From a virus (taxonomy: Duplodnaviria > Heunggongvirae > Uroviricota > Caudoviricetes): a stretch of DNA of 7,354 bases. The position numbers and the translations under genes were made by a program. Of this stretch, positions 237 to 7,354 are shown piece by piece; the stretch's first letter is position 1; the number at the start of each line of letters is the position of its first letter. The notes beneath the pieces are model-generated. The model did not search any database. It was not told the origin of the DNA and saw only the letters and a program-made list of their open reading frames with translations. Location of the stretch: IMG/VR virus record IMGVR_UViG_2609459834_000007; one strand, written 5' to 3'.

Positions 237-296
237 TGGTGCTTTATGCCTGTGAAGTTTATAATTGTGTACACATAACGAGTACACGAGGTGTTT
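237..296 (+). promoter_or_regulatory. phd-doc promoter/operator region: TATAAT -10-like hexamer followed by two Phd-type palindromic sites
   Basis: TATAAT at 260-265; perfect 10-bp palindrome TGTGTACACA at 266-275 and a related GAGTACAC at 280-287, directly upstream of the phd SD (GAGG ~288-291) and ATG at 297. The phd-doc operon is known to be autoregulated by Phd binding adjacent palindromes over the promoter; the -35 is not obvious. Confidence 0.5.
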
Positions 297-518
297 ATGC
301 AATCCATTAACTTCCGTACCGCGCGTGGCAACCTTTCTGAAGTGCTCAACAATGTTGAAGCCGGGGAAGAGGTTGAAATCACCCGCAGAGGCCGTGAGCC
401 AGCAGTAATTGTCAGCAAGGCTACTTTCGAAGCCTACAAAAAAGCGGCGCTGGATGCTGAATTTGCATCCCTGTTTGACACCCTGGACTCCACCAACAAG
501 GAACTGGTTAACCGATAA
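297..518 (+). CDS. phd: Phd antitoxin (prevent-host-death), 73 aa
   Basis: ORF translation [73 protein letters not shown] matches P1 Phd as I recall it. The track's GTG at 291 lies inside the SD, so ATG 297 is preferred. Stop TAA (516-518) overlaps the doc ATG (518-520). Confidence 0.95.
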
Positions 519-898
519 TGAGGCATATATCACCGGAAGAACTTATTGCGCTTCATGATGCGAATATAAACCGCTACGGCGGCCTGCCAGGCATGTCAGA
601 TCCGGGTAGGGCAGAGGCCATTATCGGGAGAGTTCAGGCCAGAGTTGCCTACGAAGAGATCACCGACCTTTTCGAAGTCTCCGCCACCTACCTGGTGGCT
701 ACGGCGAGAGGGCATATATTCAATGATGCCAATAAGCGTACCGCGCTAAACAGTGCGCTGTTATTTCTACGCCGTAACGGGGTGCAGGTATTTGATTCAC
801 CTGAACTGGCAGACCTTACTGTAGGCGCTGCGACTGGCGAGATATCTGTATCTTCTGTCGCCGACACGTTACGTAGATTGTATGGTTCTGCGGAGTAG
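518..898 (+). CDS. doc: Doc toxin (death on curing; Fic-fold kinase), 126 aa
   Basis: 126-aa [38 protein letters not shown]... matches P1 Doc in sequence and length as I recall it; start overlaps the phd stop (TAATG), the classic toxin-antitoxin coupling. Confidence 0.95.
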
Positions 899-902
899 AT
901 TA

Positions 903-1082
903 ATGGCACGCAAATACAACAAATTGTCCCGTGAAGCGTTAAAGATGCTTCTTGATGGCGTGAGTCGCCGCGAGGTAAAGCAATACCTGGTTGGTAAGCA
1001 AATTGGAGCCAGGACTGCTATTGCTGTGTTATGCCGTCAGGAAATGGTTGTGCTTAAACAGAGAATGCCGGGCAGCAGATAA
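903..1082 (+). CDS. small hypothetical protein, 59 aa; by position possibly the post-doc gene PdcA of P1
   Basis: ATG at 903 preceded by GGAG (892-895) with a 7-nt spacer, 4 nt after the doc stop. The track ORF 882..1082 is the same frame starting inside doc; the SD-supported 903 start is preferred. Basic protein, no domain recognised; synteny with the P1 order doc-pdcA-pdcB-lpa is from memory. Confidence 0.55.
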   Translation: MARKYNKLSREALKMLLDGVSRREVKQYLVGKQIGARTAIAVLCRQEMVVLKQRMPGSR

Positions 1083-1109: not shown

Positions 1110-2153
1110 GTGAAAGCCGTAATTACTCCCTTTGTACAAAAAGAGCTTGGCGTCGCCACATTCAAAGTGGATCAGGAAGTCAGAAAGCTGGTGGAGGCTG
1201 GCCGTAAATTTATTATGGAGCCGGTGCCGCGTGAGTTAATCGAGCACATGGACGACGGCCTCGTTGTTTCCGAGCAAACTATGGCAACAAATGAGGCGTT
1301 GCAGCCGTTTTTTAACAGCGATGAACTGTTTCGCCGTATTGGTGGAATTGACGCGCTGGTGGCGTGGTTGCGCAGGAAAGAGGGGCAATGCCAGGCCGCA
1401 GATCGTAGCTGCTGTGACAACCATATTGTCCACGCAGAACGAGACAATAGCGCGGTGTTGTTGTGCTGGCATCACGATAACCATTACCGGATGCGTGGTT
1501 TTAATGAGCTGAAAGAAACGCTGCATAATAATCGCGTTAACTGGATACTGGATGTCGCCCGTCAGGAAATGGGGCTTTCAGATGGCCATGATTTAAGTAT
1601 TCAGGAACTGTGCTGGTGGGCTTTCATGCGCAACATGATGCACCTGATGCCGGAAGAAGTTTGCCGTATATCAATAAATAAGATGAAAGCCGCAACGCAG
1701 GATAGCGGACCTCTGAAAGAGGCGGATATTCGCCCGTATGACGATCGCGCTACAGCATATGTTCAGATGATGGAAGAACGCGCCGCGCCGATGCGTGCAA
1801 AAGTATGCCCTGTGGATGTTGACTCCGACCCTGGCATGGCGCATTTCAAAATACCAAAACTGCAATCGCTAAAATTACCTGAGTACATGGACTTTGTTGC
1901 TTCCCGTCCATGCTGTGGGTGTGGAGCGGCGGGAGCTGGCGCTCACATTACGCCTTATATCGTTCGTCATAGTCGATTATGCGCGCATGACATTTACGCA
2001 ATTCCTCTGTGCCAGTCATGCCAGCGTGATATTGAGCGTGACCGCGATAATTGGGAGAAGACGCACGGTAGGCTGGCGATGCATCAACGATTGTTCTTTG
2101 ATTACGCGCTTGGAGTCGGCGCTATCACAAGTCACTCGTCGAGCGTTAGATAA
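1110..2153 (+). CDS. hypothetical Cys/His-rich protein, 347 aa; by position possibly PdcB of P1
   Basis: Long ORF with GTG start at 1110 preceded by AAAGG (1099-1103). Contains two Cys/His clusters (CCDNHIVH...LLCWHHDNH and [37 protein letters not shown]) resembling degenerate HNH / zinc-finger motifs. Function unknown. Confidence 0.75.
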
Positions 2154-2154
2154 A

Positions 2155-2171
2155 ATTGCTCTAATGTATTG
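2155..2171 (+). promoter_or_regulatory. C1 repressor operator-like site upstream of lpa
   Basis: ATTGCTCTAATGTATTG matches the asymmetric 17-bp P1 C1 operator consensus ATTGCTCTAATAAATTT at 14/17, with the 5' 11 bp exact. It lies immediately after the stop of the 347-aa ORF and upstream of lpa, which in P1 is C1-controlled. Confidence 0.6.
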
Positions 2172-2184
2172 CTATTTCTTTAAT
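2156..2184 (+). promoter_or_regulatory. candidate sigma70 promoter for lpa overlapping the C1 operator
   Basis: -35-like TTGCTC (2156-2161), 17-bp spacer, -10-like TTTAAT (2179-2184). Weak match, but the geometry fits an operator-occluded promoter. Confidence 0.3.
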
Positions 2185-2205
2185 CGAGGGTGTTATATTC
2201 CACGT

Positions 2206-2241: not shown

Positions 2242-2694
2242 ATGTTACTTAACTGGCAGGGACGCCACTTCATGGAAATAAATCACTCACGAATAACATC
2301 GTACGAGATTGCGGATTACATGATCCGCACTAAATCTCTTCTATCAGCGAAAGAACTCGCAGCAATTCTTGAAAAGGAATACCCGCATCTGGATGTCGAT
2401 AAGCGCGATGTTTATCTGCGCTTAAAGGCTATCGCTGTGTCTAAGTATTCGTCTGTTTTGATTGATGACAGTACACGCCCACGTAGATTTCAGATCCACT
2501 CTCTGAATCCTGAATTCTTTCGCCGTAGCCGCGCTCCGCGCCGGTTTGATGAAAAACTCCAGAACGAACTCTATATGACGCAGGACGAAAAGGAACGCCG
2601 GGAGCACCAGCCTTGGGTAATGGCGCGTCAACTTTTCAATAAGGTGGCCCGTCAGCACCGTCATTACGGTAATGCCACATCCGCACGTATCTGA
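2242..2694 (+). CDS. lpa: late promoter activator Lpa (P1 gene 10)-like protein, 150 aa
   Basis: ORF of the expected size sitting between a C1 operator and pacA, as in P1. The start is uncertain: ATG 2242 or in-frame ATG 2272 (MEINHSRITSY...), both with weak SDs. Confidence 0.7.
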   Translation: MLLNWQGRHFMEINHSRITSYEIADYMIRTKSLLSAKELAAILEKEYPHLDVDKRDVYLRLKAIAVSKYSSVLIDDSTRPRRFQIHSLNPEFFRRSRAPRRFDEKLQNELYMTQDEKERREHQPWVMARQLFNKVARQHRHYGNATSARI

Positions 2695-2779: not shown

Positions 2780-3973
2780 GTGACCTGGGACGATCACAAG
2801 AAGAATTTTGCTCGCCTGGCGCGAGATGGTGGTTACACCATCGCACAGTATGCCGCCGAGTTTAATCTTAACCCTAATACTGCACGTCGTTATCTCCGTG
2901 CCTTCAAAGAAGACACCAGGACAGCGGACAGCCGCAAGCCAAATAAGCCAGTCAGGAAGCCACTAAAAAGCATGATCATTGATCACTCTAATGATCAACA
3001 TGCAGGTGATCACATTGCGGCTGAAATAGCGGAAAAACAAAGGGTTAATGCCGTTGTCAGTGCCGCAGTCGAGAATGCGAAGCGCCAAAATAAGCGCATA
3101 AATGATCGTTCTGATGATCATGACGTGATCACCCGCGCCCACCGGACCTTACGTGATCGCCTGGAACGCGACACCCTGGATGATGATGGTGAACGCTTTG
3201 AATTCGAAGCTGGCGATTACCTGATAGATAACGTTGAAGCGCGGAAGGCCGCGCGCGCTATGTTGCGTCGGTCCGGGGCCGATGTTCTGGAAACCACTCT
3301 TCTTGAAAAGTCTCTTTCTCATCTCCTTATGCTGGAGAACGCCAGGGATACGTGTATTCGCCTGGTGCAGGAAATGCGCGATCAGCAAAAAGACGATGAT
3401 GAAGGTACTCCGCCTGAATACCGTATCGCGAGCATGCTAAACAGCTGTTCCGCGCAGATAAGCAGCCTGATCAACACCATTTACAGCATCCGGAATAACT
3501 ATCGAAAAGAAAGCCTGGAGGCGGAAAAGCACGCTTTGTCTATGGGGCAAGCTGGCATTGTTAAGCTGGCATACGAACGAAAGCGTGAAAATAACTGGTC
3601 AGTGCTGGAAGCAGCTGAATTCATCGAGGCGCATGGCGGGAAAGTGCCGCCCCTGATGCTGGAGCAAATCAAAGCCGATCTGCGTGCTCTTAAGACCAAT
3701 ACCGATGATGAGGAAAGGCAAACAGCCGTTGGTGGCCCTTCTCTTGAAGATCTGGACAAAGTTGCGCGAGAACGGGCCGCCAACCGCCGCGCCGATGCCG
3801 CATTGTGGATTGAGCAGCGTAGGGAAGAAATCGCCGATATCGTTGATACAGGCGGTTATGGAGATGTTGATACTGAAGGTGTATCAAACGACCCATGGCT
3901 GGAACAAGACCTGGACGAAGACGAGGAGGAAGACGAAGAAGTTACCCGCAAGCTATACGGGGATGATGATTAA
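2780..3973 (+). CDS. pacA: terminase small / pac-recognition subunit PacA, 397 aa
   Basis: GTG start at 2780 with SD AAGGAAG (2768-2774). N-terminal HTH-like region [39 protein letters not shown], acidic C-terminal tail, 397 aa as for P1 PacA. Contains the pac hexamer repeats. Stop TAA overlaps the pacB ATG (TAATG at 3971-3975). Confidence 0.95.
2973..3131 (+). other. pac packaging site: 4 + 3 TGATCA/G hexamer repeats (each with a Dam GATC) flanking the cleavage region
   Basis: TGATCA at 2973, 2980, 2992, 3007; then TGATCG at 3103 and TGATCA at 3115, 3126. This matches the known ~160-bp P1 pac architecture of four and three hexanucleotide elements flanking the cut sites inside pacA. Confidence 0.85.
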
Positions 3974-4827
3974 TGGCCAGAAGTTGCGTAACGGATCCAC
4001 GTTGGCGCGAGCTGGTGGCGCTATATCGTTATGACTGGATTGCGGCCGCTGATGTTTTGTTCGGCAAAACACCTACCTGGCAGCAGGATCTGATTATTGA
4101 GTCTGTGCAGGAACAGGGTAGCAAGACATCTGTTTCGTCTGGTCACGGTACCGGGAAATCAGACATGACTTCTATCATGATCATGTTGTTCATAATCATG
4201 TATCCCGGTGCCCGAGCCATTATCGTTGCGAACAAAATTCAGCAGGTAATGACCGGTATATTCAAGTACATCAAGATAAACTGGGCTACTGCCACCAGCC
4301 GTTTCCCATGGCTTGCTGATTATTTTGTTCTGACAGAAACCGCTTTCTATGAGGTTACTGGTAAAGGTGTATGGACTGTAGTACCGAAGGGCTTTCGTCT
4401 GGGAAGTGAAGAAGCTCTCGCCGGTGAACACGCAGATCATCTTCTGTATATTATCGATGAAGCCTCCGGTGTCAGTGATAGAGCTTTCGGTATCATCACC
4501 GGTGCTCTTACCGGACAGGATAACCGCATCTTATTACTGTCACAGCCTACACGCCCAAGCCAACGTCTAAGGAGGCTGCCAATATGGCTACTATCCCTAC
4601 CCCAACTCATCCTGAATTTATCTGCCGCTTTTACTCCTGCCAAAAACGTCACTATCACTTCGTTATTGCACCAACAGAAGATGAGGCCCGCTCTCAGCTT
4701 CCTGACGCCCCATGTATTTTCTCTGCCCGTTTTTCCACTGATTCACGCAATTCTCTCAGTTACTGGTGCCTCCCTGTTAACGCTTCTGCTCAGGAGGGAC
4801 TATGAGAACGTCATTAGTCACCCGTGA
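3973..4827 (+). CDS. pacB: terminase large subunit PacB-like ORF; only the N-terminal ATPase part (to ~nt 4560) looks terminase-like, the nuclease domain is absent (probable truncation or disruption)
   Basis: Walker [10 protein letters not shown], Walker [12 protein letters not shown] and motif [10 protein letters not shown] are present. After ...SQPTRPS (~4560) the frame reads low-complexity Leu/Pro/Ser-rich sequence to the stop at 4827 and overlaps SD-supported genes in other frames. A ~195-aa protein is too short for a functional large terminase (P1 PacB is ~490 aa from memory). Confidence 0.6.
4584..4805 (+). CDS. icd: small ORF (73 aa) translationally coupled to the downstream antirepressor gene; architecture resembles P1 immI icd
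   Basis: Strong SD TAAGGAGG (4568-4575) 8 nt before ATG 4584; stop TGA overlaps the next ATG (ATGA at 4802-4805). Protein has Cys/His residues (CRFYSC, HYH). The DNA is pyrimidine-rich and carries anti-SD-like segments, so a leader role cannot be excluded. Identity as icd rests on architecture and size only. Confidence 0.45.
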
Positions 4828-5920
4828 AGAGATGATCGAGGCAATTGAACAGCACATTGCCTGTATCAGTACCAGGGATATACCAGGCGTTATTGCCAAC
4901 TACTTCATGATCACCAAACAACTTTACCGGAGAAAGGACAAGAACTCGGTTCACCGTATCCTGTTGTCTGATATCCGCGAATACCTGCTCGAACAGGGTC
5001 ATCTGAATTACGCAACCGTCGCAGCCGAAGCACGCAAGGAGGCACACAGAATGAAAGCAACTAACGTTAAATCAGAAAAAATTCATGCACCTTCAGTTCA
5101 GGAATCGGAGCTGGTGGTTGTTCAGAATCAGTCTGATGAAATTCCCGTTCTGGAATGGCAGGGAGCGCGTGTAGTGACAACCGAGACTCTTGCTAGAGGG
5201 TATGGGACAGAAACAATCCGTATTCGCCAAAATCATCATGAGAACAAAGTACGCTTTGTTGAAGGGAAGCACTTTTTCAAAGTTGAAGGAGAATCATTGC
5301 GCGAGTTGAAGCACAGAGTAGCTTTAAACTACTCTGTAAAAATTGCTCGCAATGTTCGCTCACTCACCCTCTGGACAGAACGCGGCGCAGCCCGCCACGC
5401 TAAAATGCTCGAAACCGATCAGGCATGGGCATTCTTTGAAAAACTGGAAGACAGCTACTTCCGACAAAAAGAACAGCAACCGGTCGCAATCCCCCAGACG
5501 ATTCCAGAAGCTCTGCGCCTGGCTGCCGAGTTAGCTGAACAAAAGCAACTTCTGGAACAGAAAGCCCACCAGCTAAATCAGCAGCTGGTGGCCGCCGCTT
5601 CTAAAGTCGATTTTGCCGACCGGGTATCAGTAGCTAAAGGGATCCTGATTGGGAATTTTGCAAAGGTCGTTGGACTTAAACAAAATGCGCTGTTTGCCTG
5701 GTTACGGGAGAACGGCATTCTGATAGCGTCCGGAGGCCGTAAAAATGTACCGTTCCAGCAGTACATCAACGCGGGGTATTTCACGGTGAAAGAAGTGGTG
5801 CTGGATGATGAAGATGGCTACCAGATACGGTTGACGCCTCAATTAACGGGTAAAGGCCAGCAGTGGTTGACGCGTAAACTGCTCGATGCTGGTTTGTTAA
5901 AACCGGTGGCGGCTGAATAA
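4802..5920 (+). CDS. ant1: antirepressor-like protein with ORF6N-type N-terminal domain and KilAC/ANT C-terminal domain, 372 aa (Ant1-like)
   Basis: Strong SD CAGGAGGG (4791-4798) before ATG 4802. Central motif [42 protein letters not shown] fits the ORF6N family; C-terminal ...[46 protein letters not shown] fits the phage antirepressor KilAC domain. Predicted ~42 kDa, matching the reported size of P1 Ant1. Confidence 0.8.
5051..5920 (+). CDS. ant2: possible shorter in-frame isoform (Ant2-like, 289 aa) from an internal start
   Basis: In-frame ATG at 5051 (Met84 of the long ORF) preceded by a consensus SD AAGGAGG (5036-5042) with an 8-nt spacer. Predicted ~32 kDa, matching the Ant1/Ant2 pair (42 and 32 kDa) reported for P1 immI. 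Confidence 0.45.
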   Translation: MKATNVKSEKIHAPSVQESELVVVQNQSDEIPVLEWQGARVVTTETLARGYGTETIRIRQNHHENKVRFVEGKHFFKVEGESLRELKHRVALNYSVKIARNVRSLTLWTERGAARHAKMLETDQAWAFFEKLEDSYFRQKEQQPVAIPQTIPEALRLAAELAEQKQLLEQKAHQLNQQLVAAASKVDFADRVSVAKGILIGNFAKVVGLKQNALFAWLRENGILIASGGRKNVPFQQYINAGYFTVKEVVLDDEDGYQIRLTPQLTGKGQQWLTRKLLDAGLLKPVAAE

Positions 5921-7203: not shown

Positions 7204-7354
7204 CTAACAACGTTGCGCTGTGTGTAAGATGAGCAATGCATAGGGAAGGTGCGAACAAGTTCCTGATATGAGATCATCATATTCATCCGGAGCGCATCCC
7301 AGAGGGACATCATGAGCCATCAACTCACCTTCGCCGATAGTGAATTCAGCACTA
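7204..7354 (-). CDS. partial ORF (3' end; start lies beyond the right window edge), possibly an imcB-like immC ORF
   Basis: The - strand frame is open from the window edge to a TAG at 7204-7206 (...SAEFTIGEGELMAHDVPLGCAPDEYDDLISGTCSHLPYALLILHTAQRC*). No domain recognised; the positional guess is from memory of P1 immC (coi preceded by imcB/imcA). Confidence 0.3.
   Translation of the reverse strand, partial: SAEFTIGEGELMAHDVPLGCAPDEYDDLISGTCSHLPYALLILHTAQRC

Follow-up and report, generated by a model that had tools for sequence, protein, structure and literature searches.

P1-like phage-plasmids are widespread carriers of resistance genes, and among their most conserved genes is one that in P1 lies between the addiction genes phd and doc and the late promoter activator gene lpa, yet has no known function. 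Its product, rich in Cys and His, is propagated by RefSeq as an "HNH endonuclease" in hundreds of copies. The locus thus raises two questions: is this protein a nuclease, and does it belong functionally with the toxin–antitoxin pair beside which it is found? We have addressed both in a segment of a P1-like phage-plasmid of 7,354 nt (hereafter, the window) by comparison of sequences, predicted structures, and gene neighborhoods.

Identity of the gene

The open reading frame at positions 1110–2153 is pdcB of phage P1, a gene named previously; its DNA is 96.5% identical to P1 pdcB (NC_005856, 88859–89902) and 99.5% identical to the copy in phage RCS47. GenBank records call the product PdcB or unknown, and RefSeq calls it "HNH endonuclease". 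A Shine–Dalgarno-like GGTG stretch is located 5 nt 5' of the GTG start, and a homologue with 68% identical protein begins with ATG at the same codon. This shared start, together with the high identities to P1 and RCS47, the 853 plasmid copies, and the dN/dS ratios of 0.09–0.14 described below, indicates that pdcB is a real gene, encoding 347 residues as first proposed, and not a chance reading frame. The features surrounding it are as follows.

291–518, plus strand: phd
518–898, plus strand: doc
882 or 903–1082, plus strand: pdcA
1110..2153, plus strand: pdcB coding sequence (347 aa, GTG start, TAA stop included; from the list of open reading frames)
2155..2196, plus strand: Olpa (C1 operator) and Plpa, by homology with the P1 annotation (P1 record offset 1391)
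2242..2694, plus strand: lpa, late promoter activator (Pfam BPP1_LPA, E 3e-57)
2780–3973: pacA
minus strand of the window: c1

The coordinates bear out the close spacing after doc and a 59-aa reading frame that had been pointed out in the preliminary description (doc ends at 898, pdcA at 1082, and pdcB starts at 1110), and its statement that the post-doc genes of P1 were named without function agrees with the P1 record. Neither a promoter-like nor a convincing terminator-like site was found between doc and pdcB, and the P1 record annotates no promoter or terminator between Pphd and Plpa; co-transcription of pdcB from Pphd in P1 itself is plausible. Positions 2155–2171 read ATTGCTCTAATGTATTG, which is Olpa, overlapping the −35 element of Plpa as annotated in P1. 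The operator begins two bases past the pdcB stop codon, so that any read-through from pdcB in lysogens would meet a repressor-bound site.

Family assignment and predicted fold

PdcB matches Pfam DUF968 (PF06147) with residues 161–337 (profile positions 1–171; 171 bits, E 3e-50), passing the curated gathering threshold of 27.8 bits for the whole-protein score, and PHROGs assigns the whole protein to phrog_96, "HNH endonuclease"; a search of NCBIfam gave no meaningful match. The gene, its family, and its HNH label are already known. DUF968 and DUF1364 (YbcO, PDB 3G27) constitute group 7 of the His-Me finger superfamily, for which a role in recombination has been proposed (Jablonska et al. 2017, PMC5714182), and DUF968 proteins have been described as Orf/NinB–HNH fusions (Curtis et al. 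2014, PMC4118853). PdcB does not have the NinB/Orf-like N-terminal domain of such fusions (HNHc_6), no fold of this type being found in a fold search with its N-domain, and it gave no match to PF16786, the family of P1 Ref, at E ≤ 1, where Ref itself scores 172.7 bits. Neither the protein nor a profile of 38 sequences retrieved any PDB sequence, even at E ≤ 10.

An exhaustive profile search collected 821 relatives at E ≤ 1e-3, including about 35 full-length proteins with 20–40% identity, from which alignment A2 was built (38 sequences; 31 distant full-length relatives and 7 members of the P1 clade). AlphaFold2 run on this alignment gave a model with a mean pLDDT of 84 and a pTM of 0.48, the latter making the inter-domain arrangement uncertain. 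The model contains two beta-hairpin-plus-helix units, at residues 106–129 and 280–310, and displays the beta-beta-alpha-metal fold of the His-Me finger (HNH) superfamily; compared in full with the PDB by Foldseek, it had no significant hit (best E 0.1), the top rows being HNH proteins. The domain organization predicted from the alignment and model is as follows.

1110..1589, plus strand: N-terminal domain (aa 1–160), a small beta/alpha subdomain (aa 1–90), a zinc module, and a long helix, in that order
1389..1499, plus strand: first Cys/His cluster (aa 94–130), beta-hairpin 106–119 and helix 120–129
1590..1859, plus strand: helical linker (aa 164–190) and low-confidence region (aa 190–250) with conserved D238, P249, and K250
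1860..2129, plus strand: C-terminal Ref/YbcO-like His-Me finger (HNH) domain (aa 251–340)
1911..2036, plus strand: second Cys/His cluster (aa 268–309), with a putative zinc site of C268, C271, C301, and C304 and degenerate catalytic positions

The stretch 190–250 is poorly defined (pLDDT 60–67 at residues 190–240), and K250 is invariant in all 38 sequences of A2. By its DUF968 match and predicted fold, PdcB falls within the His-Me finger (HNH) superfamily, in the branch of YdfU and DUF968; the profile search and structure prediction proposed in the preliminary description thus yielded a family and a predicted HNH fold. Internal duplication of the two zinc modules was also considered; hhalign superimposed them in register, but without significance (E 0.034, probability 1.5%).

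Degeneration of the active site in the second cluster

Two Cys/His clusters had been recognized in PdcB from its sequence, and both were found again (aa 94–125 and aa 268–304) among its 13 Cys and 16 His residues. In the distant relatives, the C-terminal cluster runs from CxxC through D-P-H-H-[ILV] and a Gly-rich loop leading to K-A-H-D, and ends in P-L-C-x-x-[CH]-H-x-x-L-H (in brief, CxxC..DPHH..K..PLCx[CH]HxxLH), a His-Me motif of the colicin type. The P1 clade departs from it at each of the following positions.

Position 283: His in 29/31 distant relatives; Tyr or Phe in the P1 clade (n = 7)
Position 284: His in 29/31 distant relatives; Ile, Leu, or Met in the P1 clade (n = 7)
Position 291: Lys in 28/31 distant relatives; Cys in the P1 clade (n = 7)
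Position 305: His in 28/31 distant relatives; Gln in the P1 clade (n = 7)
Position 309: His in 28/31 distant relatives; Glu or Ala in the P1 clade (n = 7)

PdcB itself has Y283, I284, C291, Q305, and E309, the last being replaced by Ala in most of the P1 clade. The general-base His at the end of strand 1 (the second His of DPHH) is absent, position 284 being Ile, Met, or Leu in all seven P1-clade proteins, and at the three positions equivalent to the metal-ion ligands H283, H305, and H309, where His or Asn would be expected, PdcB carries Tyr, Gln, and Glu. Furthermore, the Gly-rich loop of the P1 clade is five residues shorter than that of the distant relatives in alignment A2.

A wider survey, in which 89 proteins covering the motif were aligned with hmmalign, gave the same picture: of 73 proteins not belonging to the P1 lineage, 71 keep all four catalytic His residues (69 with HHKHH and 2 with HH[T/R]HH at the motif positions), versus none of the 15 P1-clade proteins. 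Beyond these 15, degenerate motifs occur only in P0020, P0022, and P0055. P0020 and P0022 cluster with the P1 clade in a neighbor-joining tree, and the P1 clade and these two sister lineages share Tyr/Phe, Ile/Leu/Met, Gln, and Glu/Ala in place of the catalytic His residues, as well as Cys for Lys, the loss of five loop residues, and the four retained zinc Cys residues, a distribution consistent with a single loss of the active site at the base of this group, P0055 being a separate case. Where they could be placed, members of the degenerate lineage are found in phage-plasmids or adjoining lpa.

The Cys residues of the cluster have a different history. No substitution of C268, C271, C301, or C304 occurs in the P1 clade, and among the 31 relatives Cys occupies position 268 in all, 271 in 24, and 301 in 26, with Cys or His at 304 in 23. 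PdcB thus retains the CxxC...CxxC pattern of the structural zinc site of the zinc-finger HNH subgroup and is predicted to bind metal there, its zinc geometry being deduced from residue spacing and secondary structure. The preliminary interpretation is thus supported in part: the likening of the second cluster to a degenerate HNH/zinc motif agrees with the predicted fold, the DUF968 match, the four retained Cys residues, and the lost catalytic His residues, and the absence of all four of the latter lowers the probability of the nuclease-like role suggested for the protein. The mirror image of this pattern is seen in a sub-clade of P0039, P0042, P0047, P0050, P0066, P0067, and P0069, which has lost zinc Cys residues (Thr, Asn, or Ser at 271 and Glu, Ser, or Ala at 304 in alignment A2) and has kept all catalytic His residues.

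The first cluster as a probable second zinc module

The N-terminal cluster of PdcB contains the sequence LLCWHHDNH within residues 94–125. Its probable zinc ligands, judged from conservation, are C94, C102, C119, and H122: among the 31 distant relatives, C94 and C119 never vary, Cys or His fills position 102 in 30 and position 122 in all 31, and W120 is kept in 30 and D123 in 29. Interchange of Cys and His at a position is the behavior of metal ligands. The signature that characterizes the full-length YdfU/PdcB subfamily (C94, [C/H]102, C119-W120, [H/C]122-D123) is complete in PdcB, and the putative zinc Cys residues of both clusters are mostly conserved among homologues. Position 103, which occupies the place of a general base, is His in only 14 of the 31 relatives and Asp in the P1 clade; we therefore read the N-terminal module as structural across the family and have rejected it as the true active site.

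Separation of pdcB from phd–doc and association with lpa

Residence beside a toxin–antitoxin pair was the ground on which pdcB had been linked to addiction or anti-defense; this link is not borne out by gene order, each partner occurring without the other. In two P1-like plasmids (L086 and L088) whose PdcB is 67–68% identical, the order pdcB-lpa-pacA-pacB-c1 is kept without phd, doc, and pdcA, and the genes 5' of pdcB are unrelated to those of P1; a further element (L093) likewise has pdcB without phd–doc. IncF plasmids, in turn, carry phd-doc-pdcA with a truncated pdcB, a unit that is a P1-derived addiction cassette. Judged from these gene orders, phd-doc-pdcA is a mobile cassette separate from pdcB. 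PdcA was considered as a conserved partner of PdcB and discarded, pdcA being found only beside phd–doc and missing 5' of pdcB in the divergent elements.

The adjacency of pdcB and lpa, on the other hand, persists where the homologue is 68%, 67%, or 37% identical, the last being located on a metagenomic contig (L093) directly upstream of an Lpa homologue. In the phage-plasmid NZ_CP066033, which has a PdcB of the P0022 type, phd–doc lies 6.5 kb from the DUF968 gene, and lpa does not adjoin this copy. For the relatives with the canonical motif, one genome per species was scanned and 80 prophage loci of Enterobacterales were kept (L003–L082), all of which are DDPHH-positive by construction because the scan used canonical members only. 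In 76 of the 77 loci having a downstream open reading frame, the next gene falls in a cluster with a representative Q antiterminator (three Pfam Q families and a Q-like DUF1133 group), the gap being usually within about 30 nt; locus L010 (5962–7816), with a canonical YdfU-type gene and then Q, is an example, and the Qin prophage, itself among these loci, likewise has ydfU immediately preceding Q. A late-gene regulator is hence the conserved neighbor of the family, lpa in P1-like elements and Q in lambdoid prophages, and by this evidence pdcB appears to belong with lpa and not with phd–doc. On the 5' side of the canonical YdfU-type gene, an ANT/Rha anti-repressor-like gene is present in 46 of 78 loci.

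Several database proteins (P0035, P0053, P0056, P0060, P0071, P0099, and P0102) join the N-terminal part of YdfU to tail-tip J, portal, capsid, tail-fiber, or Q domains. The partners being unrelated structural or late genes, these proteins are probably deletion chimeras in defective prophages and were not accepted as informative architectures.

Selection, distribution, and dispensability

Pairwise dN/dS was 0.09–0.14 for the whole of pdcB, in pairs with dS from 0.1 to more than 2, and 0.14–0.15 for the C-domain. Full-length pdcB is contained in 853 PLSDB plasmids, and over 400 plasmid records, of IncF type where inspected, contain only a fragment encoding residues 1–114. In the IncF plasmid pKF3-140 (L090, 1688–2842), for example, phd-doc-pdcA is followed by a pdcB stump (aa 1–114, 81.6% identical) that adjoins a gene for the M subunit of a type I restriction–modification system and IS5. 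The gene has been listed as one of 21 with the highest conservation in P1-like elements (PMC9603915). It is dispensable in the laboratory, CRISPRi against pdcB giving a plating efficiency of 0.68 (PMC10695390) and a pdcB::kan phage being viable and forming stable lysogens (PMC10067587, PMC10999674); lpa, pacA, and pacB are essential for P1 (PMC10695390).

Predicted role of PdcB

The results described above lead us to consider it reasonably probable that PdcB is a non-catalytic, zinc-scaffolded protein that binds DNA or a partner protein; both the absence of cutting and the binding are predicted from the loss of the four catalytic His residues, the retention of the zinc Cys residues, and the purifying selection acting also on the C-domain. 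The P1 lineage being devoid of catalytic His residues, PdcB probably does not merit its database name of "HNH endonuclease". In the scheme that we propose, PdcB would consist of two zinc-stabilized beta-beta-alpha modules, the N-terminal one specific to the family and the C-terminal one folded like P1 Ref and E. coli YbcO. Its relatives in lambdoid prophages have a complete colicin-type active site (DPHH ... K ... [CH]HxxLH) and occupy the end of the nin region before Q, which in lambdoid phages is a place of junction-processing nucleases. These relatives have been hypothesized to be recombination-associated nucleases (PMC5714182), and nuclease activity of the canonical YdfU-type form is likewise suggested by its intact motif. 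At the root of the phage-plasmid lineage including P1, the four His residues, the Lys residue, and a portion of the Gly-rich loop would have disappeared on one occasion; the Cys4 zinc site and the remaining domain have stayed under purifying selection. The DNA bound by PdcB would probably be branched or an intermediate of recombination or replication, as suggested by the nin-region slot of the family and by the action of both Ref and Gp16 (see below) on RecA-bound DNA. Transcribed upstream of lpa, pdcB is dispensable for lytic growth and lysogeny under laboratory conditions.

The alternative that PdcB is still an active HNH-type endonuclease, working through its N-terminal module or through a rebuilt site using, for example, H293/D294, D307, D311, or Cys291, is somewhat unlikely, although the fold and zinc site are intact and the C-domain is under strong purifying selection. 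Residues suitable for such a site do lie near the former one: H293 and D294, in the adjoining loop, do not vary within the P1 clade, and D294 is constant even throughout the family, while D307 (or E307), D311, and the P1-clade-specific Cys291 are close by. Moreover, in Staphylococcus phage phiNM1 Gp16, some His substitutions reduce the effect only partly, and H157A does not abolish toxicity (PMC12817073). As Gp16 H157 aligns with the second His of DPHH in the profile alignment, reasoning from single residues is imperfect in this family. However, the position of the general base is taken by Ile, Leu, or Met in the P1 clade, those of the metal-ligand His residues by Tyr/Phe, Gln, and Glu/Ala, with position 309 varying even within the clade, and the Lys residue and five loop residues are gone; the N-terminal module, for its part, offers no conserved general-base His (14/31) and gave weak fold matches only. 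The opposite extreme, that pdcB is a decaying, functionless remnant of a nuclease gene, would account for the lost catalytic residues and the missing laboratory phenotype (PMC10695390, PMC10999674) but is barely credible, being contradicted by the selection data (dN/dS close to 0.1 in pairs whose dS ranges from 0.1 to more than 2), by a full-length, intact reading frame in 853 plasmids, and by the invariance of the zinc ligands and many other residues.

Two further proposals draw on gene order, and these, like that of a remnant, partly overlap with a binding protein or a rebuilt site. PdcB and its YdfU relatives might serve the late-gene switch or packaging, for instance by binding DNA in aid of Lpa/Q or the PacAB pacase, as some terminases are assisted by HNH proteins. 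A role of this kind would account for the genes that directly follow: lpa in each of four sublineages of PdcB (identity as low as 37%) and, in 76 of the 77 prophage loci that represent one species each, a Q antiterminator from one of three to four Pfam families. Nevertheless, we regard the proposal as unlikely, because mosaic phages can preserve gene order in the absence of functional coupling, lpa is driven by a C1-controlled promoter of its own immediately past the pdcB stop, the P0022-type plasmid lacks lpa beside its copy, and knock-down or disruption of pdcB spares plaque formation, in contrast to the essential lpa, pacA, and pacB (PMC10695390). Decidedly unlikely is a function of PdcB as an accessory of phd–doc or as a defense or anti-defense effector beside it. 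P1 pdcB is located 212 nt downstream of doc with no promoter or terminator annotated between them, the region 5' of pdcB is variable among P1-like elements, as is typical of accessory-gene hotspots, and the phage does without the gene in the laboratory (PMC10695390); against this, phd-doc-pdcA and pdcB separate freely in evolution, pdcB sits in the conserved pdcB-lpa-pacAB-c1 block as one of the most conserved P1-like genes (PMC9603915), and no match was found in PADLOC-DB 2.0 at E ≤ 0.01 for PdcB, PdcA, or YdfU, leaving the suggested anti-defense role without support.

Within our preferred reading of PdcB as a non-cutting binding protein, a more specific and rather unlikely speculation is that a dead zinc protein derived from a recombination-type HNH nuclease still recognizes RecA filaments, D-loops, or branched DNA and acts as a regulator. 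If so, PdcB might, for example, shield the recombination or replication intermediates of its own plasmid prophage or temper P1 Ref or host nucleases, and the nearly universal placement of the family directly before Q or Lpa could reflect a coupling of the sensing of DNA intermediates with the late switch.

A literature search found no published assay of PdcB or YdfU, and likewise no functional literature on ydfU, nor any paper stating the active-site loss, the second zinc module, or the pdcB–lpa grouping. The predicted lineage-specific loss of the whole active site with the zinc scaffold kept, the N-terminal zinc module, and the association with lpa instead of phd–doc therefore appear to be new. 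PdcB represents a degenerate branch of a known family, and the outcome is mainly a correction of annotation and a sharper choice of experiments: the loss of all catalytic His residues under selection corrects the expectation of a nuclease and favors binding assays over nuclease assays; setting pdcB apart from the phd–doc cassette matters for the inference of roles from synteny; and the YdfU and PdcB types offer a natural pair, presumably active and inactive, for probing a large prophage family.

Comparison with related proteins

PdcB is worth comparing with its closest known counterparts. YdfU of the E. coli Qin prophage and its relatives in Enterobacterales align with PdcB end to end at 20–30% identity and have the same two domains, with an N-terminal CQ...[CH]...LCWH[HC]DN module and a C-terminal CxxC...PLCxx[CH] zinc site, and the genes of both types stand directly upstream of a late-gene regulator. 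Whereas the YdfU type has DPHH, a Gly-rich loop with Lys, and HxxLH, and is encoded before Q in integrated lambdoid prophages, PdcB has TPYI, a loop shorter by five residues with Cys, and QxxIE, and is encoded before lpa in plasmid prophages. P1 Ref (PDB 3PLW, PF16786), a RecA-dependent HNH endonuclease that keeps its His residues and cuts DNA inside RecA filaments (PMC4330346, PMC3973344), is only 9% identical to PdcB, the likeness being structural and weak at the profile level (E 2.4e-4, probability 44%); where PdcB has its N-domain, Ref has a basic, disordered N-terminus. YbcO of E. coli DLP12 (PDB 3G27, DUF1364) is a single small domain of about 96 residues, unlike the two-domain PdcB. Gp16 of phage phiNM1 (HNHc_6), a RecA-dependent nickase (PMC12817073), contains an HNH module homologous to the C-domain of PdcB (probability 93.6%, E 2e-7) and scores 29.1 bits against DUF968, just over the threshold. 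In clear contrast to PdcB, however, it has a NinB/Orf-like N-domain, a fold that the N-domain of PdcB did not match, and keeps H157, H185, and H189, for which PdcB has no equivalent.

Other features of the window

The window is terminated by IS5 ends in the same orientation (1–235 and 7244–7354), so that the 7-kb segment from phd to coi has an IS5 copy on either side. The right-end terminal repeat (...CTTATTCGCACCTTCC) stops at about position 235, one base short of the P1 homology at the −35 box of Pphd, and the left end GGAAGGTGCGAACAAG, with the InsH start MSHQLTFADSEF, begins at 7244. The right IS5 is shared with phage RCS47, and the identity of the left one to the RCS47 copy is no higher than 87%. 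The pacB gene (3973–4827) is cut after about codon 196, at a junction near 4560 that was found in no PLSDB plasmid; the deletion measures about 1.2 kb relative to RCS47 and vB_EcoM-673R5, and the listed 284-aa reading frame is the PacB N-terminus with an out-of-frame tail. Since pacB is essential for P1 (PMC10695390), the element should be unable to package. Between pacB and c1, positions 4802–5920 encode ant, a 372-aa anti-repressor with an Icd-like N-terminal part, which is present at this place in RCS47, 673R5, and JL22 and is missing in reference P1, the latter covering 76% of the window.
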